Assembly (NCBI GenBank): GCA_943353165.1
Contig: CALRAM010000001.1
Span: 237,803-301,802, forward strand
Direction of reading: 5' to 3'
Source of the DNA: an uncultured Candidatus Saccharimonas sp.
GTDB taxonomy: Bacteria > Patescibacteriota > Saccharimonadia > Saccharimonadales > OMJO01
Length of the DNA: 64,000 nt
The notes beneath the pieces were generated by a model, which had not been told where the DNA came from, did not search any database, and saw only the letters and a list, made by a program, of their open reading frames with translations. Below, piece by piece: positions 23,413-57,230 of this stretch; position 1 is the first letter of the stretch; every line of letters begins with the position of its first letter. The position numbers and the translations under genes are program-made.

Positions 23413-24107
23413 TATTTTTTTCTACTTTCTTTTGTTTTACTCATACGCTCTATACTGCCGTCTTTTAGCCTGATCTGGGTCAAGCACTTGCTGGCCAATT
23501 CTTCGTCGTGAGTAACTATTACTAGAGTACACCCCAGCTTCTTGTTCAAACCAAACAACAAACTCATGATTAAATCGCCCGTAGTGCTGTCCAAATTTCC
23601 GGTGGGTTCGTCTGCAAAAATTAGTTTTGGCTTGTTGACTATCGCGCGAGCTATGGCCAGTCTTTGCTTTTGCCCTCCGGACAAATTGCTAGCCAAGTTA
23701 TAGACTTTGTCTTCTAACTCTACGGCTTTTAGAGCTTTTAGCACCATATCCTTGCGGTGGCGTCGTGGTACTTTAGCTATCTCTAGTGGCAGCATTACAT
23801 TTTGATAACATGTTTGGTTGGCCTCCACAAAAAATGACTGAAATATAAAGCTCATCTGCTTGGCCCTAAAATTATCCATAGCTCTAGACTTCATAGCGTG
23901 TAGTTCCTGGTCGTCAATTACTACGCTACCACCACTAGGGTGATCTAGGCCACTCATAATATGCATTAGTGTAGATTTTCCAGAACCACTCTTGCCGATT
24001 ATTGCCAGCGTGCTTCCATCTGGAATTTCAAAAGAAACGTCTTTTAGAGCCAAAAATAAATTGTCTTTTTTCCCATACGCTTTGTTTAGGTTCTTTACGA
24101 CTATCAT
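23412..24107 (-). CDS. ABC transporter ATP-binding protein, MacB/LolD-like
   Basis: Walker A GKSGSGKST, signature LSGGQKQR, Walker B LIFADEPT. Confidence 0.9.
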   Translation of the reverse strand: MIVVKNLNKAYGKKDNLFLALKDVSFEIPDGSTLAIIGKSGSGKSTLMHIMSGLDHPSGGSVVIDDQELHAMKSRAMDNFRAKQMSFIFQSFFVEANQTCYQNVMLPLEIAKVPRRHRKDMVLKALKAVELEDKVYNLASNLSGGQKQRLAIARAIVNKPKLIFADEPTGNLDSTTGDLIMSLLFGLNKKLGCTLVIVTHDEELASKCLTQIRLKDGSIERMSKTKESRKK

Positions 24108-38667: not shown

Positions 38668-41600
38668 CTATCTGATTACATGGTAGTAAAACGTCAGGGT
38701 TTTACTTATAGTCGTTGTGGTCTGTGTACCCAGCACAAATGTTGTTGCGGTCGGGGTGGCATAGTAGTTTAGGTTCTCGCCTGCTGTGACAGAATCTCCT
38801 GGAGTCAATACCACCATTGGTGCGGTAGTATAGGTCGTCCCAAATGTCACCGTTACTATAGTTCCTGCTGCGCAACCCGACGCACCAGTCGTAACTACTA
38901 TCTTGCCAGCAGTATCATTGCCAGCGGAACTTGTAGCAACTCCGCCAGTACAGGCAGCTGCACCCACAGCAAATGCTGTGGCCGTCGAACCAACACTGTT
39001 GCCAGATATAATATGCCCTGCAAATGTTATGCCGCCAGTTCCAGACGCCAACAACAGGGAGCTCGCACCAGTTGACGAACCTAGCGTTACCGTCTGGGCA
39101 GCTGCCCCTGTAGCTATATTTACCGTCCGGGTAGAGGCAGACGTACCTATTCCTATAGTACCCGTTCCTGCTTGTAGCGTCAGCGAGCTACCCCCAGTAG
39201 ACGAGCCTACCGTTACTGCTTTGGCATTTGCACTGTTACCTATATTTACAGCGCCCGTTGTACCAGAGTCTAGAGTCAGGGTACTGCTAGTTGTTGTATT
39301 GATTGTCAGCCCACCAGTGCTGGTTATGGCAGTAGGGGATAGTTTCAGTGTTGTCGCTCCGGCTGCGGTGCCTACAGCCAATGTTCCTGCAGCAGTCCTA
39401 TAAAATACGGTATCGTTGTCGTAGCCGAAGGATACTCCTGAATTGTACGTAGTGGGCGTTGCCAGATCAGCCCCTAGTTGCAGTGCGGAAGTACTAGAGG
39501 TTGAAATAGAGACGCCGAAGTTATATGTACCGACAGTTTGCGGCCCGACAGACAGCCCTACAGCACTAACTATTGAACCGCTACTAGAATTTGTGGCTGA
39601 GCGTACAATCAGCCCATAAGCAGCCTCTAGCACCGTACTACCCGTGTTGTTCACGCCGAAAGATCCGCCAGCTACAGCGTCCGTTAGGCCGGTCAACCCA
39701 TTGCTTTGGGCCGTAGCGTATACTCCCGAGCATACATTGCCAAAAAAGAATACGTGCGGACAACCAGCTGGGTTGGTGGTGGCGGTAAAATCATGATGTA
39801 TCCCTAATGCGTAAAAAGCGTTTGGAGTGCCGCCAGAACCTATGGACACAATCCCATCTATATCCGCATTGGCACTTACCGCTAGCCCGGTATTTCCCAA
39901 GGTCGCGCTATTTGCCAGTCCAGCTGTTAACAACTGAGAAACCGTTAATGCACCGGCGTTAGTTGTAGTAATACCTGCTCTACCTAGGCTTATGGCTGTT
40001 TGGGTTGAACCACCTATAGTCAACGTCCCTGCAGCTGCCCTATCTAGTGAATTGGCCAATACACCGGCAAACTGAGGTGTTGCGCCAGTGTTGATGTTTT
40101 GGATGGTGTTTACAGCCCCAGAGCTGACACTAAAGTTGGTGCTGTTAAAGCTGGCTATGCCTTTGGCTGAAGTACTGGCATCGTCTATGGTTAGCACCCC
40201 GCCCGAACCAGTGGCATTGTTTACAGTAACCACTCCTGTTTGTCCATTAATGCTAGTAACCCCACCGCCAGCTCCACCCGTACAAGCATTGAAGCTCAAT
40301 ACGCCAAACCCATTACTCTGCAAACAATCGCCGTTACTGCCCGCAGTTGTAGGCAATGTCAGCACTAGGTTTGCCGCCGTAGCTCCACTTTGCAGGGTAA
40401 TAGTGTTGGCGTTGGTAGAGTTGTAAAAGAGTAAACTACCGGTTGTAGTGCTGGCTTTACCAGATGCAAAACCACCGGCTTCGTTCAGGATAGTTATACC
40501 GCCTGTTTCTTGCAGGATGGAGTTTTCCAGGTTGTAGGCTGCGGTAAACTTAGGCAGGTAGTTTGCCGTGCCTCCAGACGAACCAACGCTACCTCCAGAT
40601 CCTACACAGTTGCCACTGCTTAGACATACCACTCCAGCTAAATCTGGGAATGTAATTGCCCTGTTAGCGGTTAAGGCAGAAGAATCCAGGGTAGCATAGA
40701 AAGCATTTGTTTCATTGCCCACTATGACTAGTCCATTTGTAGTGTCAGCTCCCAGTATAGTGTTGCCCGCGGCATTCTGTATCTGGAAGGCTGTTGTTGT
40801 ATCAGTCTGATTTTTAAATAGTGCATTGCCCCGCACATCGAGTGAAGTAGTTGGCGCATTGATACCTATGCCAACCTTGGAGCCAAATCCTGTTACACTA
40901 GACGCCGCCGTACCTCCGCAGGTCCATGTACCGTCATCAGTTGCAGGAGAGCTGGTAATCGTAGTTGGCACAGTTACAGTACACTTCAGCTCAGCACCCG
41001 AACTGGTGCTTCGATAAAAGTTATAGCTACCCGCACCTGTAACCGCTGTAAAGTTGATAGATAATGAGTTCAGATTAGTTCTGGCGGTGTTGGAGCCCGG
41101 TATTGCTCCACTTGGTGTAGTAATATTATCTGTTGCTGTAGTGGATGTATTATTAGCAATTGTCTGGTCAAGCAAGAAAGCTCCGCCATTAGTGCTGCGA
41201 TATATTTTACGAGAAGTTGTCCCTGAACCTCCTAGCGGGATAGCCGTCAAGGTAATCTGTTTACTTGAGACATTTACCAATGTATTGCTGATAGTTCCCC
41301 CATCAGTCTCGCCATTTGCAGTTACAAAAGTGACTTTATAGTTACAGCCAGTGGCGTTACATGTAACATTTCCTGCCGTAACAGAAGCAGTCGCAGTTAA
41401 GGCTGTTGGCGCCGTAAGCGGCGTCAATGGAACTGAAAGCTCAGCAGAAGGAGCAGACTCGCCACCGACCCCAACTGATGTTACTTTGTAATAATAGGTG
41501 CTCGCCGCACCAGAGAGTGAGCCGCTACTATTCGAAATCGTTCCTGTTGTGGGTGTGCTTGGTGTCGTAAAATTGTTTATGACGAAATTGCCCTGAGTAA

Positions 41601-44600
41601 CGTTTACATTCCCACCGCTTGTATCCGCAGAGAATAGACTAGCACCGCTAGCATTTTGTATATTAAATGCTGACGTGGAGTTGGTGGTGTTTCTGAACAA
41701 AGACGCTGCTGCGCTATTGAACCCATAGCCCGCCACCGTAGTACTGGTACCAATATTCACACTGGAGCTTGCGGCATCGACGCTGAATATGTTGGCGCTA
41801 CTATCGGAGTTCTGAACTATTAGGGCCGTAGTTGAAGTAGACAGAACTTTTACAACACCATTTACATCAGACGACAGGCTGTTGGCGTACACCATTTTGT
41901 CGCTGGTTACTCTAAGTGGTGCGGATATTGGATCTCTACCTTCATTTATGGTATCTATATAGACGCCAGAGTACGGCAGGGTTTTACTACCCAGGCTGAC
42001 GCCACCGCCACGAACTGTGGCCTGTGAAAGGGCACAGGTTAAGTCTACACAGTGTACAACGCTGTTGTTTAGGCCAACATTAGTGCCGCCAGCAGCTCCA
42101 CCATTTGCTACAATTATCGGAAAACCATCATTACCTATTAACGCTGTGGAGTTTTGGCCATAATTATAAAAAGTATTTCCAAATGGAATGATCGTTGGCA
42201 ATGTAGGAGCTAAACTACTACATGTCAAGTTAGCGCAATGTGCTATGTAGAGGGCGCTGGCGGTATGTGCGTATGTGATTATCGGTAGGCCATCCACACC
42301 AATCGTCATACTAATATTATTTTGAGAACCTCTAACACTACCATTAATAGCTACATCAGATACCACAGCTGGTCCTGAATATGACGAACAGGTAGATGTA
42401 AGGCATCTATACGCTATAATAGGACTTCCTACAGCAGATATGTTTTGTGTAATAATTACAGGCTTACCGTCTGCGATGGCCATGGCTGTATTTTGACCAA
42501 TATTATTGCCGGGATAACTTATTGTATTGGTGGTGGATGCAGTGGCAAATAGACTACAATTCGTATCGTTACAGCGTGTAACATTTATTGTGTCAGTGCC
42601 GTCTTCGTTTCGGTAGGCGACTATCGGGACACCGTCTTGTCCTTTACTTGCTGAAATATAATCGCCGGTGTTGCCAGCCGATATTTTCTGCTCCGTGTTC
42701 ATTGCAGTACAATTTTTGTCTGTGCATCGCGTCAAAACTATGTCATTAGAGGTGGCGTTCTTATGAAAGAAGAGTGGTATGCCATCAGCACTTAAAACGC
42801 CATTTACGTACCATCCAGTGGTATCATTAGTAGTCGTTTGCAGGATCCTATTGCCACTGGAACAGTCATTTTGCGTACAGACTATTACGAATATCTTTTT
42901 TGCCGCGGTGTCGCGTACAGCGATAATTGGTAGGCCGTTCTCCTGCATGATAATACTGCTATAGGTGCCGATATCATTTCCGGAGCCATATGGACTACTG
43001 AACGAGGTTGTAATGACAGCTTCAGCCGGAAGAACGCTACTACATGTAGAATTTTTACACTTTTGAACAACAAACTTATTGTTTGTGGAATCCTTAACTC
43101 CAATTATCGGCTTGCCGTCACCACCCATTGCCATCGTTGTTCCACTATTAGTGTAGTCAATGACACCCTGTTGAGAAAGTTGCGATAACGTTCGTAGTTG
43201 CGAGGTGCTAGAACTTGTAAAGCCTGGATTAATCAGTGCGTTGGCACTGTCTACCGCTAATATGCTGCTTCCGCTGGCATTTTGTACAGCAAATGCAGTG
43301 GTGGAATCTGTAGTATTTCTAAACACTGCCTGTCCGCTTCCGGAAATATCGCCATTTATGCTGACTCCTTGCATGAAAGTTGCTGCGTCAGTTACTTGGA
43401 ATCTACCAGCTATTAATGTATTTCCTGCTGTCAGGGTGCCTCCGCCGCTACTACTCTGTAGGCCATTGCCACCTAAACCAACCAAATCTAGCGAGCCACC
43501 TACATACGTGCGTGGACCGCTGGCATACTGAACCTCACCCAGATTTGAACCACTGACAATATAAAAGTACCCGTTGGCGGTTGCCATACCCAAAGCTCCT
43601 GATCCCGTAGTCAAGGTGCCCGATATTTGGGTAAATGTACCCAAAGATCCAGAAGCGCCAATTTGGGCATATTCGTAACTGTTTAATCCACTTCCGCCGA
43701 CCGCATACATGTATCCATTCATAACCCCTACACCCAGATATCCCCTAGCAGTGGTCAAGACACCGGTCAGTTTTGTCCATGCCCCCAACGCACCCGTACC
43801 ATCACTGTTTATCAGCGTTCTGTATATATCTTCTTGGCCAACGTTTGAACTATTTTCACCACCAACATAGTACAGATATCCGTTTGATACGATTGCCTGT
43901 CCGCCCATCCTAGCATCCGTCAAAGCAGGCGGGGCCGTAAGTGGTGATGTACAGGTGCTGCCGCTGACACAAAAGGAACCAACCGATCCATCGGCATTTA
44001 GTTTGGCATACTGCACAGAATTAGTTGGCGTACTAGGATAGCCATAATAAGCAGTTGTAGCGCCTCCAATTATGTAGATGTATCCGTTGTGAACCACTAC
44101 GCCCGGACTAAGAACTGCTGTCACCATCTTGTTGTCTGCCAATTTCCAGCTAGAAATAGTTCCATCACTTTTTATTGCACCGTAGTAAATAGTCGTTGTT
44201 ACTGCAGTGGTAGAATCTGCACCACCTACAACATACATGTATCCATTGTCAATAACTGCCCCCGGAAATTCTCGCTCGGGGTTTGTGCCACCCAGAGGTA
44301 AAGTGGCGGCCCATGCACCAACTGTACCATTTGGGTTTATTGGGGCGTATGATACACCTGCCTGCAAGCTTAACCCATTATAGCCGGCAACTCTGTATAG
44401 GTATGACCCGTTTGAAACAGTAGCATGCTGATTCCAAAGAGACCCAAGGCTAGTTGTATTCGCCCATGCTTGCAGTGTTCCAGAGTTGTTGCCATTGATA
44501 TTTATAACACTATTTGTAGTATCAATATTAAACAGTTGTGCTCCAGCTGCATTTTGAACCTGAAAGGCAGTTGTGGAATTGGTGCTATTTTTTGCTAGGA

Positions 44601-47298
44601 CAGCAGTATTTATGATTCCCGCCGGACTGACACCGAATACCGAAGTGCCGGCAGTGTTCTGAACTTCAAAAACATTTGTAGATTGGTTGGTATTTGCCCT
44701 GGCTACAAGTGTAGCGGCCGTGTTGGTGCCTGCAGTGTTAGTTGTCTGAAATAACCCAGATGCGTTAGTTTCACTCTGGCCGAGCACACCGTAACCACCA
44801 CCACCAACACCTTTTACTCCACCACCAACACCAAAGCTCTGGGTGCCGACAACTCCATAAGACAGATTGTTGTTTGTGGTACCTATAAATGCGTTTCCGG
44901 CTGTATTTGTGGCGTTTATGGTGCCCTGCAATGTGTCCGCCCAAAATATCGTTGTTCCGCCGCTCTGCTTTATGTTAAATGCCGCACTGTTGTCCGCAGA
45001 GTTTTGGAAGGTTGTGCTTCCAGTAGCCCCGACACTGAACAGATTGGCAGTACCAGAGTTTTGGATCTGTAACAAATCGGCTGTCTGACCAGCTGCACCG
45101 CGAATTAATCCACCAACATAGCCGATGTTGGCGCTTTGAATAGCAAAGTTGCCGTTGGTTTGCACGCCATTACCGTTCTGGATATAGTTACCCGAACCAC
45201 TAGAGGCTGCACAGCCAGCCAGGTTACAAACAACAGTGCCAGTAATACGCAACGAAGCTACCGCAGAAGTCAGGTTTACATCGCCATTTACATCTAGTGC
45301 ATAACCACTTGGATAGGTGTTTATGCCCACACGCTTGTTCAGGGTGTCAACAACCAGAACATTGCTGGTCCCTGCTGCATCTAGAACCCTGAAAGCCCCT
45401 GTCGTGTCCGACGTATTTTGAAATGTAGCAGCTCCAGTGGCTGTAACATTAAATAAATTAGTACCGGCGCTGTTTTGCAACTGGAATAGATCTGCGCTTT
45501 GACTAACAGCACCTTTTATAACGCCGCCAACATATGTGGCATTAGCTGATTGAATGGCAAAGTTAGCACCCCCCGGTTGTATGCCGTTGCCGTTTTGTAT
45601 ATAGGAACCGCTGCCTGAAGTTGCATCACAACCACTAGCGGTACATTTTATGTCGCCGCCTATGCGGAGAGCAGAAGTTCCAACTATGTTTATGTCTCCG
45701 TTGACATCTAGTTTGTAGGCAGGCGCTATACCGATGCCAACGTAATTTAGGTTGGTGTCAGCTATAAACAGATTTGAAGTACCAGCGGCGTTTTGTATAG
45801 AAAACGCTGTAGCAGAATCCGATGATGGCCTAGCAACTACATTACCCGTACTGCCAACACTAAATACAGGTGTTGCGTTTGATATCTGTAGCTCCAGCAG
45901 GCTAGCAGACTGGCCAGCAGCGCCCCTAACTTTAGCTCCTATGTATGTGGCATTAGCTGATTGAATGCCAAAGTTAGCATTCGATTGTATGCCGTTTCCG
46001 TTCTGAATATAGGAACCGCTGCCTGAAGTTGCATCACAACCACTAGCGGTACATTTTATGTCGCCGCCTATGCGGAGAGCAGAAGTTCCAACTATGTTTA
46101 TGTCTCCGTTGACATCTAGTTTGTAGGCAGGCGCTATACCGATGCCAACAAGACCTGTAGATGTATTTGTATCCACATTCAAAACTCCCGAACCTGCAGA
46201 GTTTTGTACCTGAAAAGCTGTGACAGAATTTGTGGCAGTACGAATACTGGTATTTCCAGTAGCCCCGACACTAAACACAGAACTACCAGTGTGCTCCTGC
46301 AACTCTAGCAGGCTACCAGACTGAAATATTACTCCCTGAACAACCAAGCCCTTGTTTGCCAAGGCTCCCGTAGCTATCACAGTCTGGGCCAACCCGTCTG
46401 GGCTAGTAGGACTGTTTATGCTCAACTTGTTACCTGGTGTTGCGTTGCCGATGCCAACATTACCACCTGCCGCTACCGTCAGCCTAGTAATGTTATTTGT
46501 TATAAAGTTCAAATCGTTGTTATCCGTGGTACCCAGTACGCCAGTAGCAGCAAAGGCGTTGCCTCCCTGCAAAAAAGCGTTTCCGCTACCGCTGGCACAA
46601 GCAGAAAAGCTCAGAGTTCCTGCGCCATCGGTAGTCAGACATTGGCTGATAGCTCCCCCGTTTGCTGGTAGCGTCAGGGTTACATTGGCCGTACCGGCGG
46701 CGGCTTGCAACAACACGGCGTTGCCATTAGTTCCGCTCAATTTCAATCCACCAAAGAGTGGCGAAGCTGTAGTAGCCAAATCTTGGGGCAATTTTGTGCC
46801 AAATGTAGTCAGCAATGCCAAAACTTCAACTTCTGTCAGCCCCACAGCATCGCTGTTTGCTATGGTCAAATAGGTTGTACCGTTGTAGTACCGCAAATCT
46901 CCGGTTGTGCTATCCAAATAAACTTGACCCAAAACAGAAGTAGTTGGTTCGACAGTTGGATTGATGACCAATCCCTGCGTAGTCTGTAACTGACCGTTTA
47001 TAACCACCCTGTCAGTTTTATCCAAGGTCAGTGGGGTTGTGTTTTTTGCCAGCTTGCCCAAATCCACATCCTGAGTTTTGACCTGACCATTGTTTGACGG
47101 TTTTTGGTTTTTGGCCAGATTACCCTTTAAAAACAACAACCCAGCGACCAGGGCAACAACCAATATTATAACGCCAAAAACCCACTTCCAGGGGATCTGT
47201 TTCCCGACTGGCAGTTTTGGCGCAGGAACAGTCGTCGTTTGAACTGTTGGTGGTGCGTCAAGTGCTACCGATTCACTTCGCCATTGTTGTTCTTCCAT
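38668..47298 (-). CDS. giant (2,876 aa) membrane-anchored surface protein with tandem beta-rich modules, Kelch-like propeller, Cys-pair repeats and FN3-like segments
   Basis: Single uninterrupted ORF. A ~36-aa N-terminal stub is followed by one TM (WKWVFGVIILVVALVAGLLFL). The rest is T/G/S/A/N-rich with very few charged residues. See findings for the domain map. Confidence 0.85.
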   Translation of the reverse strand: MEEQQWRSESVALDAPPTVQTTTVPAPKLPVGKQIPWKWVFGVIILVVALVAGLLFLKGNLAKNQKPSNNGQVKTQDVDLGKLAKNTTPLTLDKTDRVVINGQLQTTQGLVINPTVEPTTSVLGQVYLDSTTGDLRYYNGTTYLTIANSDAVGLTEVEVLALLTTFGTKLPQDLATTASPLFGGLKLSGTNGNAVLLQAAAGTANVTLTLPANGGAISQCLTTDGAGTLSFSACASGSGNAFLQGGNAFAATGVLGTTDNNDLNFITNNITRLTVAAGGNVGIGNATPGNKLSINSPTSPDGLAQTVIATGALANKGLVVQGVIFQSGSLLELQEHTGSSVFSVGATGNTSIRTATNSVTAFQVQNSAGSGVLNVDTNTSTGLVGIGIAPAYKLDVNGDINIVGTSALRIGGDIKCTASGCDATSGSGSYIQNGNGIQSNANFGIQSANATYIGAKVRGAAGQSASLLELQISNATPVFSVGSTGNVVARPSSDSATAFSIQNAAGTSNLFIADTNLNYVGIGIAPAYKLDVNGDINIVGTSALRIGGDIKCTASGCDATSGSGSYIQNGNGIQPGGANFAIQSANATYVGGVIKGAVSQSADLFQLQNSAGTNLFNVTATGAATFQNTSDTTGAFRVLDAAGTSNVLVVDTLNKRVGINTYPSGYALDVNGDVNLTSAVASLRITGTVVCNLAGCAASSGSGNYIQNGNGVQTNGNFAIQSANIGYVGGLIRGAAGQTADLLQIQNSGTANLFSVGATGSTTFQNSADNSAAFNIKQSGGTTIFWADTLQGTINATNTAGNAFIGTTNNNLSYGVVGTQSFGVGGGVKGVGGGGYGVLGQSETNASGLFQTTNTAGTNTAATLVARANTNQSTNVFEVQNTAGTSVFGVSPAGIINTAVLAKNSTNSTTAFQVQNAAGAQLFNIDTTNSVININGNNSGTLQAWANTTSLGSLWNQHATVSNGSYLYRVAGYNGLSLQAGVSYAPINPNGTVGAWAATLPLGGTNPEREFPGAVIDNGYMYVVGGADSTTAVTTTIYYGAIKSDGTISSWKLADNKMVTAVLSPGVVVHNGYIYIIGGATTAYYGYPSTPTNSVQYAKLNADGSVGSFCVSGSTCTSPLTAPPALTDARMGGQAIVSNGYLYYVGGENSSNVGQEDIYRTLINSDGTGALGAWTKLTGVLTTARGYLGVGVMNGYMYAVGGSGLNSYEYAQIGASGSLGTFTQISGTLTTGSGALGMATANGYFYIVSGSNLGEVQYASGPRTYVGGSLDLVGLGGNGLQSSSGGGTLTAGNTLIAGRFQVTDAATFMQGVSINGDISGSGQAVFRNTTDSTTAFAVQNASGSSILAVDSANALINPGFTSSSTSQLRTLSQLSQQGVIDYTNSGTTMAMGGDGKPIIGVKDSTNNKFVVQKCKNSTCSSVLPAEAVITTSFSSPYGSGNDIGTYSSIIMQENGLPIIAVRDTAAKKIFVIVCTQNDCSSGNRILQTTTNDTTGWYVNGVLSADGIPLFFHKNATSNDIVLTRCTDKNCTAMNTEQKISAGNTGDYISASKGQDGVPIVAYRNEDGTDTINVTRCNDTNCSLFATASTTNTISYPGNNIGQNTAMAIADGKPVIITQNISAVGSPIIAYRCLTSTCSSYSGPAVVSDVAINGSVRGSQNNISMTIGVDGLPIITYAHTASALYIAHCANLTCSSLAPTLPTIIPFGNTFYNYGQNSTALIGNDGFPIIVANGGAAGGTNVGLNNSVVHCVDLTCALSQATVRGGGVSLGSKTLPYSGVYIDTINEGRDPISAPLRVTSDKMVYANSLSSDVNGVVKVLSTSTTALIVQNSDSSANIFSVDAASSSVNIGTSTTVAGYGFNSAAASLFRNTTNSTSAFNIQNASGASLFSADTSGGNVNVTQGNFVINNFTTPSTPTTGTISNSSGSLSGAASTYYYKVTSVGVGGESAPSAELSVPLTPLTAPTALTATASVTAGNVTCNATGCNYKVTFVTANGETDGGTISNTLVNVSSKQITLTAIPLGGSGTTSRKIYRSTNGGAFLLDQTIANNTSTTATDNITTPSGAIPGSNTARTNLNSLSINFTAVTGAGSYNFYRSTSSGAELKCTVTVPTTITSSPATDDGTWTCGGTAASSVTGFGSKVGIGINAPTTSLDVRGNALFKNQTDTTTAFQIQNAAGNTILGADTTNGLVIVGNETNAFYATLDSSALTANRAITFPDLAGVVCLSSGNCVGSGGSVGSSGGTANYLPKFTAAYNLENSILQETGGITILNEAGGFASGKASTTTGSLLFYNSTNANTITLQSGATAANLVLTLPTTAGSNGDCLQSNGFGVLSFNACTGGAGGGVTSINGQTGVVTVNNATGSGGVLTIDDASTSAKGIASFNSTNFSVSSGAVNTIQNINTGATPQFAGVLANSLDRAAAGTLTIGGSTQTAISLGRAGITTTNAGALTVSQLLTAGLANSATLGNTGLAVSANADIDGIVSIGSGGTPNAFYALGIHHDFTATTNPAGCPHVFFFGNVCSGVYATAQSNGLTGLTDAVAGGSFGVNNTGSTVLEAAYGLIVRSATNSSSGSIVSAVGLSVGPQTVGTYNFGVSISTSSTSALQLGADLATPTTYNSGVSFGYDNDTVFYRTAAGTLAVGTAAGATTLKLSPTAITSTGGLTINTTTSSTLTLDSGTTGAVNIGNSANAKAVTVGSSTGGSSLTLQAGTGTIGIGTSASTRTVNIATGAAAQTVTLGSSTGASSLLLASGTGGITFAGHIISGNSVGSTATAFAVGAAACTGGVATSSAGNDTAGKIVVTTGASGCAAGTIVTVTFGTTYTTAPMVVLTPGDSVTAGENLNYYATPTATTFVLGTQTTTTISKTLTFYYHVIR
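45599..45741 (-). repeat. 143-bp core of tandem coding repeat, copy B (identical to 46007-46149)
   Basis: Base-for-base identity read directly. Encodes GIGIAPAYKLDVNGDINIVGTSALRIGGDIKCTASGCDATSGSGSYI. Confidence 0.9.
46007..46149 (-). repeat. 143-bp core of tandem coding repeat, copy A (identical to 45599-45741; period 408 nt)
   Basis: Base-for-base identity read directly. The flanks are similar but diverged, with a 3-nt indel on one side. Confidence 0.9.
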
Positions 47299-51699: not shown

Positions 51700-51958
51700 A
51701 TAATTGCTCCTTTTGGCACACAAAAAACCCCTATCGCAGGAGCTCCGCCTTTGGCGGAACGGTACCATCCTACTTTACCTAAAAAGACTGTCTTTTAGGG
51801 GGGCTTAATTTCTGCTATGACGGGCGTCTCCCGGCAGGTTCTAGTTTTCCTTTGCTACTACGTAGTGGCAATGGTTTTTCTTCCTGCTCCTTAAGTGGCT
51901 GATGACCACTTCTCTGTCGAATGACAGAACGGATTTATGTATTTTTTGTACTTCGCAC
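51700..51958 (-). promoter_or_regulatory. T-box leader (Ile specifier AUC) of ileS
   Basis: The minus strand carries the T-box core AGUAGGAUGGUACCGUUCC (plus 51760-51770 = cggtaccatcc). It also carries the hairpin GUGG-UCAUCAG-CCAC with the AUC codon followed by A (plus 51895-51909). A candidate promoter TTGCGT-17-TACAAT lies upstream. GCUCCU can pair with the SD AGGAGC, and a UAGGGGUUUUUU tract is also present. Confidence 0.7.
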
Positions 51959-51996: not shown

Positions 51997-52257
51997 TTAG
52001 TAACTATAAGCCATCAATTCATCCATAACCGGAAACGGCAATCCCTGCCATAGCTTTAGTAGCTGATTGTCTTCGCGCAAGGACAAAATAGCGGGATAAC
52101 TGACGACATCGTACAGAGTAGCCATTTCTGCCCCTTCTTTGGTTTCTAGGCTTAGTAGTTTGATATTTTTTTGGGTTCTACGGGCAAAATCCTTGACATA
52201 CGTTTCTGCTATCGTGGCGTGATCGGACAGTGGATGATAGACAATGACTAGCTTCAT
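51997..52257 (-). CDS. hypothetical small protein, thioredoxin-fold-like but without Cys
   Basis: 86 aa. The beta-alpha-beta pattern KLVIVYH...IKLLSLET...VVSYPAILSL...LLKLWQG resembles the Trx/Grx/NrdH fold with the cis-Pro (SYPA). The CxxC position reads PLSDH. Located 72 nt downstream of nrdJ. Confidence 0.4.
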   Translation of the reverse strand: MKLVIVYHPLSDHATIAETYVKDFARRTQKNIKLLSLETKEGAEMATLYDVVSYPAILSLREDNQLLKLWQGLPFPVMDELMAYSY

Positions 52258-52329
52258 ACATCCAGTTTAGCACAACCGTTTCCAGGCAGCACCTGATAGC
52301 ATTTCGTGGCTACTATTTTATGGTCTTTT

Positions 52330-55095
52330 CTACGAGCAACCAGTGGTTGAACCACAGCTGGTACAAACATAACAACTGCCCGCCTTTTGGGTTTGGTTGC
52401 CACAGTTATAGCACAGCGGAGAGGTGTCGTCAGAGCCCGATGATTTTTGGGCATATTCGTTGACTTCTTTTGTCATAGTTACTGGCAGTGCTTCTATTTT
52501 TTCTATCAGAGCTACTGGTTTTGGTTCCATGGTATCTGTCAACAGACTAGTCTGTTGGTCAGGCATATCGTCTATGGAAGCCAATCCCAGCTCTAGTCGG
52601 TCATCAAAGCTTAGATAGCTCAGCGCCAAACGACGAAATATATAGTCCACTAGTGATGACGCAGTTCGCACATCAGGGTCATCTGTTATGCCAGACGGAG
52701 CGAAAGACATACTAGTAAAAGATTTGACGTAATCTTTTAGAGGTACTCCAAACTGAAGACCGTGACTAACGCTGATGGCAAAGGCGTCCATGACACCCCG
52801 AAGCGTAGATCCTTGTTTGGATATATTTACAAAAACCTCTCCTGGAGTTCCGTCATCGTATTGTCCTACTGTTATGTACCCATGACTGTCTGCTACTTTG
52901 AAAGAAAATGTAGTGGCAGTACGTACTTTTGGCAATTCCCTGCGAATAGTACCTCTGACTATTACCCTGTCGTTCAAACTATCTGCAGAAACGTCTGGGG
53001 TTTCTGTGGCGCCTTCTTTTTTGGCCATAGACAATGGTTGTGCAACTTTGCAGTTATCTCTATATACTGCTACCGCTTTTAGCCCCAGTTTCCATGATTC
53101 TATATGTAGCTGTTCTATGTCTTCAACTGTGGCATCTTCTGGCATATTTACTGTCTTGCTGATGGCACCAGAAATAAATGGTTGTACTGCTGACATCATT
53201 TTTACGTGACCCATGTAATGAATGGAGTTATCTCCCATGGAACACGCAAATACCGGTTCATGCTCCTTTTTTAGGTATGGAGCGCCTAGAATAGACTTTT
53301 CTTCGTCAATATATTTTACTATTTCTGTTACTTCTTTTTTGGAGTAACCCAAGGCATTTAGTGCTCGTGAAACTGTCTGGTTTACGATGCTCATCGTACC
53401 ACCGCCAACCAATTTCTTTAGTTTTACTAGTCCCAAATCTGGTTCTATTCCAGTAGTATCGCAGTCCATCATCAGCCCAATCGTACCAGTTGGAGCCAAG
53501 ACACTTGCCTGTGCGTTCCTGACACCATGAAGTTCGCCCAGCTCTACAGCATCGTCCCACGCTGTTGTAGCAGCACTTAATAGTTCTTCTGCCACCAGAC
53601 TAGCGTCTATCTTAGACACTTCTTCGCGGTGCATTTTTAGGACATTTAACATTCCCTGACGATCCTTGTGAAAACCAGCAAATGGACCTACTTGGCGTGC
53701 CAACTTGGCGCTTGTAGTGTAGGCGTGCCCTGTCAATAGTGCAGTTATAGCTGCAGCCTGAGCCCTACCTTCATCGCTGTCATAGGGTAATCCCTGGGCC
53801 ATCAGCAAGGCACCGAGGTTAGCGTAGCCGATACCAAGTTCTCTGTAAGCCTTTGCATTTTTTGTGATGTTTTCTGTTGGGTATTCACTGTAACCCACTA
53901 GAATTTCCTGTGCTGTAAATATCAGCTCAACAGTGTGCTTGAAAGCTTCTATGTCGAAAGTATTGTCTGCTTTTAGGTATTTCAAGAGGTTAATCGAAGC
54001 CAGATTACAAGCTGAATCATCCAAGTGCATATATTCGCTACAAGGGTTGCTGGCGTTGATGCGACCTGCTTTTGGTGATGTGTGCCATCGGTTTATAGTA
54101 GTATCAAACTGCATGCCAGGATCTGCACACTCCCAGGCTGCTTCTGCAAATTGTCGAAACAAATCTCTGGCTTTGATAGTTTTTACTGTTTCGCCTGTTT
54201 TGACTGCTTTTAGGTCCCAGTCGGCGTTGGCTTCTACGGCCTGCATAAATTCGTCAGTAACTCTGACAGAATTGTTGGCGTTTTGGTACTGAACAGAGAA
54301 CAAGTCTTTTCCGTCCAATGTCATGTCAAAGCCAGCTTTTTCTAGGGCGCGGGCTTTTCGCTCTTCTATAGCCTTGCACCATATAAATTCCATTATATCT
54401 GGGTGATCAGCATTCAAAATAACCATTTTTGCGGCCCGGCGTGTTTTTCCACCGCTCTTTATCGCTCCTGCCGAAGAGTCTGCGCCCCTCATAAAGCTTA
54501 GCGGTCCAGAAGCTGTACCAGCGCTCTTTCCCAAAGTTTCTACAGACGACCGAATACCGCTGAGGTTTATACCTGAGCCTGAACCGCCCTTGAAAATCAT
54601 TCCTTCTTCTTTGTACCAGTTCAAAATAGCTGGCATGGTGTCCTCTACCGCCAAAATAAAGCAAGCGCTGGCCTGTTGTGCGCGACTAGGAACACCTATA
54701 TTAAACCAAACTGGCGAATTAAAAGCCGCTCTCTGAGTAGCCAAAATATATTTTAGTTCCTCTCGGAAATCCGTTGCCTCGGCTTCGGTATCAAAATAAC
54801 TCTCCTGCAAACCTTGCCTAGCAATAGTATCCACAACGCGATCTATCAGGTTGCGTAGCGAGCTTTCTCTATCATCGCTGCCCGGAGTGCCCGTAAAATA
54901 CTTCTGGGCCACTATATTTATGGCATTTTGACTCCAGCCTTCAGGAAAATCAACATCTTTTTGTTCAAAAACAGGTTTTCCTGTCATTGGATTCATAATT
55001 ACAGAGTCGCTCTTGACCCACTTTAGCTGGTCGTAGCCTTTGCTCTTTACTGGTGTTAATAGTCTTCTGTGACCCAAGATTGTTGTTTGTCCCAT
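52330..55095 (-). CDS. nrdJ: class II (adenosylcobalamin-dependent) ribonucleotide reductase
   Basis: 921 aa. Active-site region ...ASNPCSEY..., TGIEPD, and the C-terminal Cys-rich tail CYNCGNQTQKAGSCYVCTSCGSTTGCS typical of NrdJ. GAGGG RBS. Confidence 0.9.
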   Translation of the reverse strand: MGQTTILGHRRLLTPVKSKGYDQLKWVKSDSVIMNPMTGKPVFEQKDVDFPEGWSQNAINIVAQKYFTGTPGSDDRESSLRNLIDRVVDTIARQGLQESYFDTEAEATDFREELKYILATQRAAFNSPVWFNIGVPSRAQQASACFILAVEDTMPAILNWYKEEGMIFKGGSGSGINLSGIRSSVETLGKSAGTASGPLSFMRGADSSAGAIKSGGKTRRAAKMVILNADHPDIMEFIWCKAIEERKARALEKAGFDMTLDGKDLFSVQYQNANNSVRVTDEFMQAVEANADWDLKAVKTGETVKTIKARDLFRQFAEAAWECADPGMQFDTTINRWHTSPKAGRINASNPCSEYMHLDDSACNLASINLLKYLKADNTFDIEAFKHTVELIFTAQEILVGYSEYPTENITKNAKAYRELGIGYANLGALLMAQGLPYDSDEGRAQAAAITALLTGHAYTTSAKLARQVGPFAGFHKDRQGMLNVLKMHREEVSKIDASLVAEELLSAATTAWDDAVELGELHGVRNAQASVLAPTGTIGLMMDCDTTGIEPDLGLVKLKKLVGGGTMSIVNQTVSRALNALGYSKKEVTEIVKYIDEEKSILGAPYLKKEHEPVFACSMGDNSIHYMGHVKMMSAVQPFISGAISKTVNMPEDATVEDIEQLHIESWKLGLKAVAVYRDNCKVAQPLSMAKKEGATETPDVSADSLNDRVIVRGTIRRELPKVRTATTFSFKVADSHGYITVGQYDDGTPGEVFVNISKQGSTLRGVMDAFAISVSHGLQFGVPLKDYVKSFTSMSFAPSGITDDPDVRTASSLVDYIFRRLALSYLSFDDRLELGLASIDDMPDQQTSLLTDTMEPKPVALIEKIEALPVTMTKEVNEYAQKSSGSDDTSPLCYNCGNQTQKAGSCYVCTSCGSTTGCS

Positions 55096-55252
55096 TTTAC
55101 CCTCACTTTTTAAAATTTATAGTTATTGTTGTTTTTGTTTAGAGTTGCGTAACGCTCTCTTACTTTACGCTTTGCTCCCCCCGAGTTTTAAACCCTGCGT
55201 AAACTTAATAGTAACGCATATATATAAAACCGCGGGGGCAACCGTCAAAACT

Positions 55253-55726
55253 CTATTTTTTGACGCCAGTTGCTTTGCGATTACGAATTTGTAATAGCTC
55301 CTTTTCAAAGCCCGCTATATCTTTGAAACGTCTGTAGACGCTTGCAAACCTGACATATGCGACCTCATCCAGTGATGCCAAACCATCCATTACCATTTCA
55401 CCTATTCTGTTTGTGGCGATTTCGTCATCTCCACAAGACCTCAATTGTTGCTCTACATCTGCAACTAGGGCCTGTAACTGCAAATTGGTTACAGCAGTTT
55501 TCTCGCATGCACGATATAGACCTGCCAAAAGTTTTTCTCTGTCAAAAAGCTCTCTAGTACCGTTATTTTTTACCAATATAACCTGTGGTCTCTCTACACG
55601 TTCATAAGTAGTAAAACGATGCTGACAACTGATGCATTCGCGGCGGCGACGTATAGCCTCGCCCTCCGTAACATCTCTTGACTCTATAACTTTGGTGTCG
55701 TTTTTGTGACATCGGCTGCATTTCAT
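55253..55726 (-). CDS. nrdR: transcriptional repressor NrdR
   Basis: N-terminal zinc ribbon MKCSRCHKNDTKVIESR...CISCQHRFTTYE followed by an ATP-cone. Confidence 0.9.
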   Translation of the reverse strand: MKCSRCHKNDTKVIESRDVTEGEAIRRRRECISCQHRFTTYERVERPQVILVKNNGTRELFDREKLLAGLYRACEKTAVTNLQLQALVADVEQQLRSCGDDEIATNRIGEMVMDGLASLDEVAYVRFASVYRRFKDIAGFEKELLQIRNRKATGVKK

Positions 55727-55925
55727 ATTGCACCCCTTTCTTTAGAACTATACCCATATCAACCTTAAAAACTACATTTTTGTGCAGTTTTTTTTAGAAT
55801 GTTATGAAAATTTGTTCAGTTTAAATGTGCTGACCCCCTATTTTTTATCGTACATATGGTGTCTATGTAAGTTATCATAGCCCTAGCTATAGCGTTTTAC
55901 AATACATAAAATGTTGTGCTATTTA

Positions 55926-57230
55926 CTATTCTTTGTTTTGGTCTTTTTCGGTCTTGGACTTACTTCTTTGCTTCTTTAGTCTGCGCAAAAATGATGGTTT
56001 TTCAAGTTCTTCTTCGCCCATTTCGTCTTCTTCTGGCTGAATCTGAACGTCCTGGTTGTCATCGCCAGAATTATCCAAGTTCGAGTTTTCATCTGTTCCG
56101 TTATCTAGAGTCCAAATATTTGGCATTGGTTTGTCAGTATGAAAATTGCCCCCAAGGTTTTCTTCGTCATGAAGCTCCATATCTATAGAATTGACTACTT
56201 CATCGTCGTGTTTTACGGTGCTAGCTTCAAAAGAACTAGATGAAGGCGTTGATTCTTTGGTTCTATCGGCATAATAAGTGTCGTCAAACCCAGTTGCTAC
56301 TACAGTAATGATTATTTCGCCCTCTAATTCTGGGTTTATAGTAGCCCCAAATATAATGTTTGCTTCTGGATCTGCAGCTGCCGTTATGGTTTCGGCTGCC
56401 GTGTTTATTTCGTGCATAGACATATCGTATCCACCTATGACGTTAAACAAAATACCCCTAGCGCCATCGATAGACACTTCTAGCATAGGTGATTCTACGG
56501 CTTGTTGGGCAGCCTGTATGGCTCTATTTTCGCCACTAGCTCGTCCGATACCCATCAAAGCAGAACCAGCATTCTTCATGACTGTCTTTACGTCTGCAAA
56601 GTCTAGGTTTATCAGTCCGTGAACTGTTATGAGGTCTGATATGCCTTGAACGCCTTGTCTTAGAACATCGTCAGCAACCTTGAAGGCCTCTAGTAAAGGC
56701 GTGCCACGGTCTATAGTCTGCAACAATCGGTCGTTAGGAATGATTATTAGGGTGTCCACCGACTTCCTCAGGTTCTCTATGGCGTTGACGGCATTTCTAC
56801 GACGCTTTTCGCCCTCAAAAGCAAAGGGTTTTGTTGCAAAACCTACAACTAAAGCACCTGATTCTTTGGCTAAATGGGCTACGATATGGCCAGCTCCACT
56901 GCCTGTGCCACCACCTGCGCCAATGGTTACGAAAACCATATCTGCGCCTTCGACAGATTTTTTGATCTCTTCGATGGATTCTTCGGCTGCCATTTGCCCT
57001 ACAGATGGCTCTGCGCCTGCGCCCAAACCTCTGGTTGTTTTGCTGCCTATATGTATTTTTGTTTGAGCCTTAGAATGATGAAGCGACTGCGCGTCTGTAT
57101 TTACTGCGATAAACTCAACACCTTCGATTCCTGCATCAACCATACGGTTGACTGCTGCCCCACCGGCGCCCCCAACACCTATAACTTTTATTCTGGCGAA
57201 CGTTTCTATAACAGGTGCGACTTGTGGCAT
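55926..57230 (-). CDS. ftsZ: cell division protein FtsZ
   Basis: [13 protein letters not shown], the tubulin signature GGGTGSGAG, a long acidic linker and the C-terminal peptide PSFLRRL. Confidence 0.95.

Follow-up and report, generated by a model that had tools for sequence, protein, structure and literature searches.

A candidate tRNA-Ile-sensing T-box riboswitch of Saccharibacteria ileS with a predicted terminator helix that flanks the acceptor-binding element

Upstream of the isoleucyl-tRNA synthetase gene ileS, an uncultured Candidatus Saccharimonas sp. carries a leader with a T-box core, a very short Stem I and complementarities that would suit either transcription termination or sequestration of the Shine-Dalgarno (SD) sequence. 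The question is whether this leader senses tRNA-Ile and, if so, by which read-out it acts. The stretch analyzed, hereinafter the window, comprises 64,000 nucleotides (nt) of contig CALRAM010000001.1 (assembly GCA_943353165.1, positions 237,803 to 301,802). The leader spans 51936-51722, and all leader coordinates refer to the minus strand of the window. We propose, at a probability of roughly 0.7, that it is a tRNA-Ile-sensing T-box riboswitch of ileS whose output is intrinsic termination by a helix that flanks an intact A1/bulge/A2 element, i.e. the two helices A1 and A2 with the T-box bulge between them.

Conservation and decoding module

Homologous leaders were collected from the 80 closest IleS loci among species-representative genomes (59-71% identity), nearly all labelled Candidatus Saccharibacteria, Saccharimonadales or Patescibacteria. 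The motif [AG]GATGG[ACT]ACC lies 60-150 nt upstream of ileS in 57 of the 80 loci. A covariance model (R1), built from the 3' domains of 40 homologous leaders with the window left out, detects the element in 72 of the 80 loci and gives the window's copy, at 51822-51721, a score of 43 bits (E=1.5e-7). The significance of the leader comes from this conservation among homologs, not from its single motifs. A second R1 match in the window, at 23957-24074 on the minus strand (17.5 bits, E=0.93), falls within the coding sequence of an ABC-ATPase and was rejected as chance; matches on the reverse strand were dismissed as hairpin symmetry.

The decoding module is uniform across the family. Specifically, a stem of 4 base pairs (bp) carrying a 7-nt apical loop N-N-A-U-C-R-N is present in all 73 elements, with AUC, an isoleucine codon and thus a match to ileS, at positions 3-5 of the loop in every one. 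The base that follows AUC is A in 68 and a purine in 70 of the 73, and the stem occurs in 12 pair combinations. In a plain MAFFT alignment of 46 leaders, all four pairs of the specifier stem covary with 100% of cells paired, the lower helix of Stem II has double changes at five of five pairs (94% paired), Stem IIA is 83% paired, and no variation occurs in the S-turn strands (A)AGAA and UAGA. Duplexes between the IIA loop and the tail are more stable in cognate than in non-cognate combinations (-4.4 vs -3.25 kcal/mol; 0/2000 permutations). The apical-loop specifier, the S-turn of Stem II and the IIA/B pseudoknot are the marks of ultrashort-Stem-I T-boxes. A sequence-only reading had taken the locus for an ileS T-box that shows AUC in the terminal loop of an ultrashort Stem I, free of a distal platform and similar to Actinobacterial ileS T-boxes, and this part of the reading is supported; the strings that it named (the T-box core, UGGU, GUGG-UCAUCAG-CCAC, GCUCCU, AGGAGC, CCCCUA and UAGGGG-UUUUUU) are all present on the minus strand.

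The window conforms to this pattern. Its Stem I is a stem of 4-6 bp only, with the specifier AUC in the apical loop at 51903-51901 and the conserved 3' purine, A, at 51900; the codon lies 136 nt upstream of the T-box bulge. [quoted passage not shown] Helix IIB is reduced to about 2 bp (GC/GC).

A further hairpin precedes the specifier hairpin in the window and in many, not all, homologs. A base helix around both hairpins may form between UCC (51933-51931) and GGA (51890-51888), and such a helix is seen in 35 of 73 minimum-free-energy (MFE) folds. An alignment-free comparison of cognate and non-cognate pairings gave no significant difference for this base helix (-3.95 vs -3.83 kcal/mol; 438/2000 permutations), and the pairs picked out by eye (UGC/GCA, AGC/GCU, UACAUU/AAUGUA, AUCC/GGAU) are suggestive. 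Many leaders also have a K-turn-like site, in which a G.A/A.G tandem (UGA...GAA) lies directly below the specifier stem, a hairpin stands where the K-turn bulge would be, and a base helix of 3-6 bp closes the whole; in the window (51912-51933, 51888-51892), two A-U pairs take the place of the tandem.

The discriminator is conserved as well. A1 has six pairs, 99.7% paired and four with double changes, and A2 has six pairs, 92% paired and five with double changes. Between them the bulge UGGNACC is invariant, as in T-boxes generally. Bacterial tRNA-Ile(GAU) has A73, which fits the UGGU of the window. The fourth bulge base is not U in six leaders, namely UGGA in L026, L045, L053 and L054, UGGC in L051 and UGGG in L069; these would be mismatched if their tRNA-Ile has A73. 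The basal pair of A2 (51760/51742 in the window, alignment columns 120/164) is G.U in 36 of the 59 leaders designated class A below and G-C in the window and its subclass; published work assigns to a G.U pair at this place the role of sensing the aminoacyl group sterically.

Upstream of A1, the 59 class-A leaders read AAGnG-Stem III-AA, and their Stem III covaries (eight pairs, seven with double changes). A purine string of the form RRRxG-Stem III-AA is required for binding of the tRNA 3' end (PMC7583486), and the window has the corresponding AAGCC-CC-Stem III-UAAA. The window belongs to class B, which comprises 11 leaders and one metagenomic locus (L185); Stem III is missing from class-B leaders other than the window. 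Two leaders, L031 (2819-2964) and L076 (2838-2976), have an extra hairpin inside the Stem III loop, and L001 (upstream of 261) has an insertion of about 120 nt between decoding module and discriminator.

A helix around the acceptor-binding element

In 67 of 73 MFE folds, a helix of 6-17 bp (median 13) encloses the intact A1/bulge/A2 element and abuts a run of 4-7 U residues, 12-38 nt before the start codon. These folds essentially bear out the proposal, made from the sequence alone, that the upstream CCCCUA region pairs with UAGGGG-U6 for termination. In the 59 class-A loci, Stem III supplies the 5' arm of the helix with its 3' strand and its loop. All 13 pairs of the class-A lower helix show double changes, and 86-95% of cells are paired vs 37-49% in slid controls (0/500 shuffles); the alignment used was fitted to Stem III and not to the terminator helix, and an unfitted MAFFT alignment gave the same result.

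Energetics point in the same direction. In class A, pairing of the 3' arm averages -16.8 kcal/mol with the Stem III strand and -3.3 kcal/mol with the 3' strand of A2/A1, the canonical arm, and the canonical arm is better in none of the 59 leaders. When the leaders are truncated before the 3' arm, Stem III forms in 58 of 59, while the terminated state of the complete leaders is more stable by 14.7 kcal/mol on average. Because of this covariation and these energies, the shared strand is seen to covary with two partners, namely with the 5' strand of Stem III and with the terminator's 3' arm. Exclusivity of terminator and antiterminator through the 3' strands of A1 and A2 is not found in class A and is ambiguous in the window's subclass. 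Judged from sequence and predicted folds, the acceptor-binding helix is thus common to both states in class A.

From the observed anatomy, conservation, covariation and energetics we infer tRNA binding, the direction of the switch and competition for Stem III or the linker, as follows. The AUC apical loop and the Stem II S-turn, with the IIA/B element, would capture tRNA-Ile. Once A1 and A2 have been transcribed, an uncharged 3' end would pair with UGGU, and the linker purines and Stem III would dock onto the NCCA/bulge duplex. Docking would withhold the terminator 5' arm until RNA polymerase clears the U tract, resulting in read-through. If tRNA is charged or absent, the 5' arm would stay free, Stem III of class A would be invaded via its loop, and the long helix would terminate transcription. 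This default helix would join the segment just 5' of the T-box element, probably the purine linker AAGCCCC in the window and the 3' strand and loop of Stem III in most relatives, with the 3' segment that precedes U6, and polymerase would stop 10 nt before the SD sequence.

The proposed role of linker and Stem III agrees with single-molecule fluorescence resonance energy transfer on the ileS T-box of Mycobacterium tuberculosis, in which charged tRNA keeps its pairing with the bulge but the linker comes undocked and Stem III shifts away (PMC12647780). A more general proposal, to which we give slightly less than even odds, is that in this Saccharibacteria lineage the aminoacylation signal is transmitted by capture of Stem III or the purine linker into a terminator that spares the acceptor-binding helix, not by breaking the antiterminator, and that this happens co-transcriptionally without an elbow platform. 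If so, the lineage would show by natural example that the decisive step in sensing is the docking of Stem III and linker, not the formation of A1/A2. The three-strand arrangement, in which the 5' strand of Stem III and the terminator 3' arm vie for one strand while A1/bulge/A2 stays folded, would likewise offer a natural test of such docking as the aminoacylation sensor, the role given to it by recent structural and single-molecule work (PMC12647780).

Table 1. Features of the ileS leader in the window and predicted folds of its 3' domain
Feature	Position	Strand	Remarks
5' hairpin GUUCUGUC-AUUC-GACAGAG	51912..51930	-	precedes specifier hairpin; in window MFE fold
Ultrashort Stem I, specifier hairpin AAGUGG-UCAUCAG-CCACUU	51893..51911	-	core GUGG/CCAC 51909-51895; 7-nt loop 51905-51899
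Stem II	51834..51887	-	lower helix GCAGG (51887-51883) with CCUGC (51838-51834); distal hairpin 51871-51852
Stem II S-turn strands	AAGAAAAA 51882-51875; ACUAGAA 51845-51839	-	
Stem IIA CGGG-AGACG-CCCG	51833-51821	-	with tail UCAUAGCAG (51820-51812), IIA/B pseudoknot element (51812..51833)
Linker purines AAUUAAG and terminator 5' arm AAGCCCC (51806-51800)	51800..51810	-	alternative register CCCCUA 51801-51796
Stem III CCUAAAAGAC-A-GUCUUUUUAGG	51778..51799	-	in window MFE fold
T-box core AGUAGGAUGGUACCGUUCC	51774-51756	-	
Acceptor-end binding element	51736..51773	-	A1 = GUAGGA (51773-51768) with UCCUGC (51741-51736)
T-box bulge UGGUACC, 7 nt	51767-51761	-	between A1 and A2
A2 hairpin GUUCCGCC-AAA-GGCGGAGC	51760-51742	-	
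GCUCCU	51743-51738	-	
Terminator 3' arm UAGGGG / GGGGUUU and U6 tract (51727-51722)	51722..51733	-	UAGGGGUUUUUU at 51733-51722
SD sequence AGGAGC	51711-51706	-	10 nt beyond U tract, outside terminator helix
ileS, 961 aa	48814..51699	-	TIGR00392 equivalog 803 bits (cut-off 621); Pfam tRNA-synt_1 and Anticodon_1
3' domain, three-way fold AAGCCCC/GGGGUUU + Stem III + A1/A2	51810-51722	-	MFE -34.5 kcal/mol, z=-3.78
3' domain, CCCCUA/UAGGGG register			-26.8 kcal/mol
3' domain, Stem III + A1 + A2 only			-26.2 kcal/mol
3' domain, canonical terminator AGCUCCU/AGGGGUU			-23.2 kcal/mol

The window's own subclass and other readings

In class B the flanking arms are mostly AAGUCCC/GGGGCUU, with the covarying variants AAGUCCU/AGGACUU (L068), AAGCCCU/AGGGCUU (L185), AAGCUCC/GGAGCUU (L071) and AAGCCCC/GGGGUUU (window). 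A MAFFT alignment of the 12 class-B leaders lost the register of the 3' arm, and the class-B evidence consists of duplex energies and these arm sequences in place of a formal pair count. Every version of the window terminator ends at the same U tract.

Several observations weigh against the proposed termination by a flanking helix, or against a T-box at this locus altogether. The motif RGATGGNACC is expected 0.51 times per window, hairpins of the specifier-loop type number 39 in the window, and single motifs are thus not beyond chance. The Rfam T-box model (RF00230) gives the window leader 18.4 bits against a gathering cut-off of 93 (E=0.087 in a 701-nt search). Three leaders (L024, L054 and L071) look canonical in fold. 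As bare duplexes, the canonical arm of the window (AGCUCCU, -10.3 kcal/mol) and its flanking arm (-10.5 kcal/mol) are about equal, and either could serve as the window's 5' arm; across class B (n=11), the flanking arm is better in four leaders and the canonical arm in four, with three tied, including the window. Because the lower helix of the window coexists with Stem III and A1/A2 in the MFE fold, no competition by base pairing is visible there, and antitermination would rest on tertiary docking. The enclosing helix also takes up three of the six residues of the U tract. A tRNA-Ile gene, which would give the anticodon and the discriminator base, was found neither in the window nor in the first 60 loci, those scanned for tRNA genes. 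Finally, according to the review literature, fast capture of tRNA in transcriptional T-boxes generally calls for a long Stem I that carries an elbow-binding platform (PMC7583486).

If the leader resembled a T-box by chance only, or were the decayed relic of one that no longer functions, the sub-threshold Rfam score and the motif frequencies would follow, as would the departures of the window from the consensus, namely A-U pairs for the tandem G.A, G-C for G.U at the foot of A2 and an IIB of 2 bp. Nevertheless, 72 of 80 loci keep all modules, each helix shows compensatory changes, the leader has a fixed place directly upstream of ileS, and the AUC is invariant in 73/73 elements, making this explanation scarcely credible. 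At the gathering score, Rfam finds nothing in the window and nothing in 16 homologous loci. Its local alignment to the window leader is full-length and wrongly puts the specifier hairpin in place of the distal Stem I. We rejected this miss as a refutation because RF00230 models long-Stem-I T-boxes. The sequence-only reading had named the absence of a covariance-model hit as refuting; the score does fall below threshold, but the condition itself is misleading for the same reason. Conventional T-boxes from a metagenome also fall below the Rfam 15 cut-off of 93, mostly at 54-83 bits.

The canonical fold of the window deserves separate consideration. A local hairpin AGCUCCU-GCGAU-AGGGGUU followed by U4, with the 3' strand of A2/A1 as its 5' arm, would give an attenuator with classical exclusivity, and the complementarity of AAGCCCC would be incidental or auxiliary. 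The equal duplex energy of the two arms in the window fits this arrangement, as do the retention of GCUCCU in all class-B leaders, the better canonical duplex in L052, L070, L071 and L072, and the three canonical folds mentioned above. In the window, however, the canonical fold reaches -23.2 kcal/mol vs -34.5 (enclosing fold) and -26.2 (antiterminator), so that a canonical terminator would have to displace a structure more stable than itself. Moreover, the canonical pairing deteriorates in L068, L185, L009, L064 and L066, which retain the flanking helix, and in none of the 59 class-A relatives is the canonical arm the better one. We therefore regard a canonical attenuator as unlikely and prefer termination by the flanking helix.

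The sequence-only reading had also offered a translational read-out. In the absence of uncharged tRNA, GCUCCU (51743-51738) would leave A1 and pair with the SD sequence AGGAGC (51711-51706), either as the sole output or on top of termination. The match is a perfect one of 6 bp (duplex -11.3 kcal/mol), the anti-SD strength is similar in L009, L021, L057, L068 and L051, and the decoding module is of a type known from translational T-boxes (PMC7583486). On the other hand, the enforced sequestrator lies at -31.0 kcal/mol vs -39.2 for the MFE fold, a cost of 8.2 kcal/mol, and the SD sequence is free of the leader in the MFE fold. Anti-SD complementarity is weak (above -8 kcal/mol) in most homologs and strong in only about six of 52 scored leaders, the window included. 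Complementarity of CUCCU to AGGAG is moreover explained by the conserved AGGA of the T-box sequence, and a covarying helix with a U-run between T-box and SD sequence, present in 67 of 73 elements, would be needless for a purely translational switch. Translational control is accordingly very improbable as an explanation of the window; sequestration there would be at most a secondary layer, and an unlikely one.

In a class-A subgroup (L021, L027, L034, L040 and L057), an extended SD sequence AGGAGCC(U) matches GGGUUCCGG, the 3' strand of A2/A1, by complementarity, with duplexes down to -14.6 kcal/mol. This sequence complementarity hints at an additional translational layer in some lineages.

Relation to known T-boxes and gene context

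T-boxes have been described mainly from Firmicutes and Actinobacteria. The closest counterparts of the present leader are the Actinobacterial ileS T-boxes of M. tuberculosis, M. smegmatis and Nocardia farcinica, whose ultrashort-Stem-I structures are available as 6UFG and 6UFM (cited in PMC7583486). They regulate the same gene through the same AUC-then-A specifier, likewise in the apical loop of a short Stem I without distal platform, and have the same succession of a Stem II S-turn that follows the codon by about 21 nt, IIA/B, purine linker, Stem III and A1-UGGN ACC-A2. In contrast, the Saccharibacteria leader occurs in a host of the candidate phyla radiation (CPR), has a predicted U-tract terminator instead of SD sequestration, and has a predicted OFF helix that flanks A1/bulge/A2 instead of unfolding it; Stem III is missing in most of the window's subclass, and many members carry the extra 5' hairpin by the K-turn-like G.A tandem.

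With the canonical T-box (Bacillus subtilis tyrS and glyQS; RF00230) the leader shares uncharged tRNA as effector, UGGN:NCCA pairing, RRRxG-Stem III-AA and an intrinsic terminator upstream of the coding sequence, the terminator and the steps that involve tRNA being predicted here. The canonical terminator takes its 5' arm from the 3' half of the antiterminator, whereas the 5' arm of the Saccharibacteria leader lies upstream of A1; the latter also has no long Stem I, scoring 18 bits against the Rfam cut-off of 93.

The enclosing design is not confined to Saccharibacteria, since conventional metagenomic T-boxes also have enclosing terminators. A metagenome scan with the pattern TAAG-N8-9-AGGATGGTACC for T-boxes lacking Stem III (loci L081-L200), meant to enlarge class B, returned mostly unrelated conventional T-boxes, about 89 in number, and only one leader of Saccharibacteria type, L185. 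Among these about 89 leaders (e.g. L082, L092, L112, L127 and L149), the terminator 3' arm pairs with the T-box sequence itself (A1-5'/UGGUAC) in 65, is canonical in 12 and is enclosing in eight. In long-Stem-I T-boxes without Stem III (L092, L126, L127 and L149), a helix UAAGACC...GGUCUU-U5 joins the purine linker to the segment 3' of A1 and encloses the intact A1/bulge/A2. The enclosing leaders L125, L127 and L149 match RF00230 over its full length with 72-83 bits. Such long-Stem-I T-boxes differ from the Saccharibacteria leader by their long Stem I, their occurrence in bacteria of other, AT-rich kinds and their other downstream genes.

A full-text search of one literature collection retrieved no paper that combines T-boxes with Saccharibacteria, Patescibacteria, candidate phyla radiation or TM7, and TBDB applied its short-Stem-I model only in Actinobacteria (PMC7778990). 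By comparison of sequences, the decoding half is of the known ultrashort-Stem-I ileS type, and what differs is the phylum, the predicted terminator in place of the sequestrator and the OFF helix that flanks the antiterminator. The combination of an ultrashort Stem I with an apparently transcriptional read-out is treated as an exception in reviews (PMC7583486). The Rfam model is blind to these leaders, and a phylum-level set of candidate tRNA-sensing leaders is thereby missed by standard annotation. In practical terms, the element may be of use in engineering as a compact modular tRNA-responsive terminator, and it may provide a means of regulating an essential gene of epibionts with reduced genomes.

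In 15-16 Saccharibacteria loci, the leader lies 230-1800 nt upstream of ileS, with one or two small unrelated genes between them (SGNH/GDSL-hydrolase-like, GNAT-like, cupin-like and others; L002, L004, L006, L014, L019, L026, L028, L032, L037, L038, L042, L043, L047, L069, L073 and L077). These genes would then be co-regulated by tRNA-Ile.

A consensus scan of the window for promoters and terminators returned no promoter, and its sole terminator (51852-51871, plus strand) is merely the distal hairpin of Stem II read on the complementary strand; the scan is blind to terminators with large enclosed structures. By eye, a promoter-like pair TTTACA-17-TACAAA is present at 51973-51945. The ATG start codon of ileS occupies 51699-51697, not 51698. 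Upstream of the leader (51997-57230, minus strand) lie genes for FtsZ, NrdR and a class II (B12-dependent) ribonucleotide reductase, and an 86-aa open reading frame without family match. Downstream, ileS is followed by rplU (L21), and two genes downstream of ileS lies a very large open reading frame of 2876 aa (38668-47298, minus strand).

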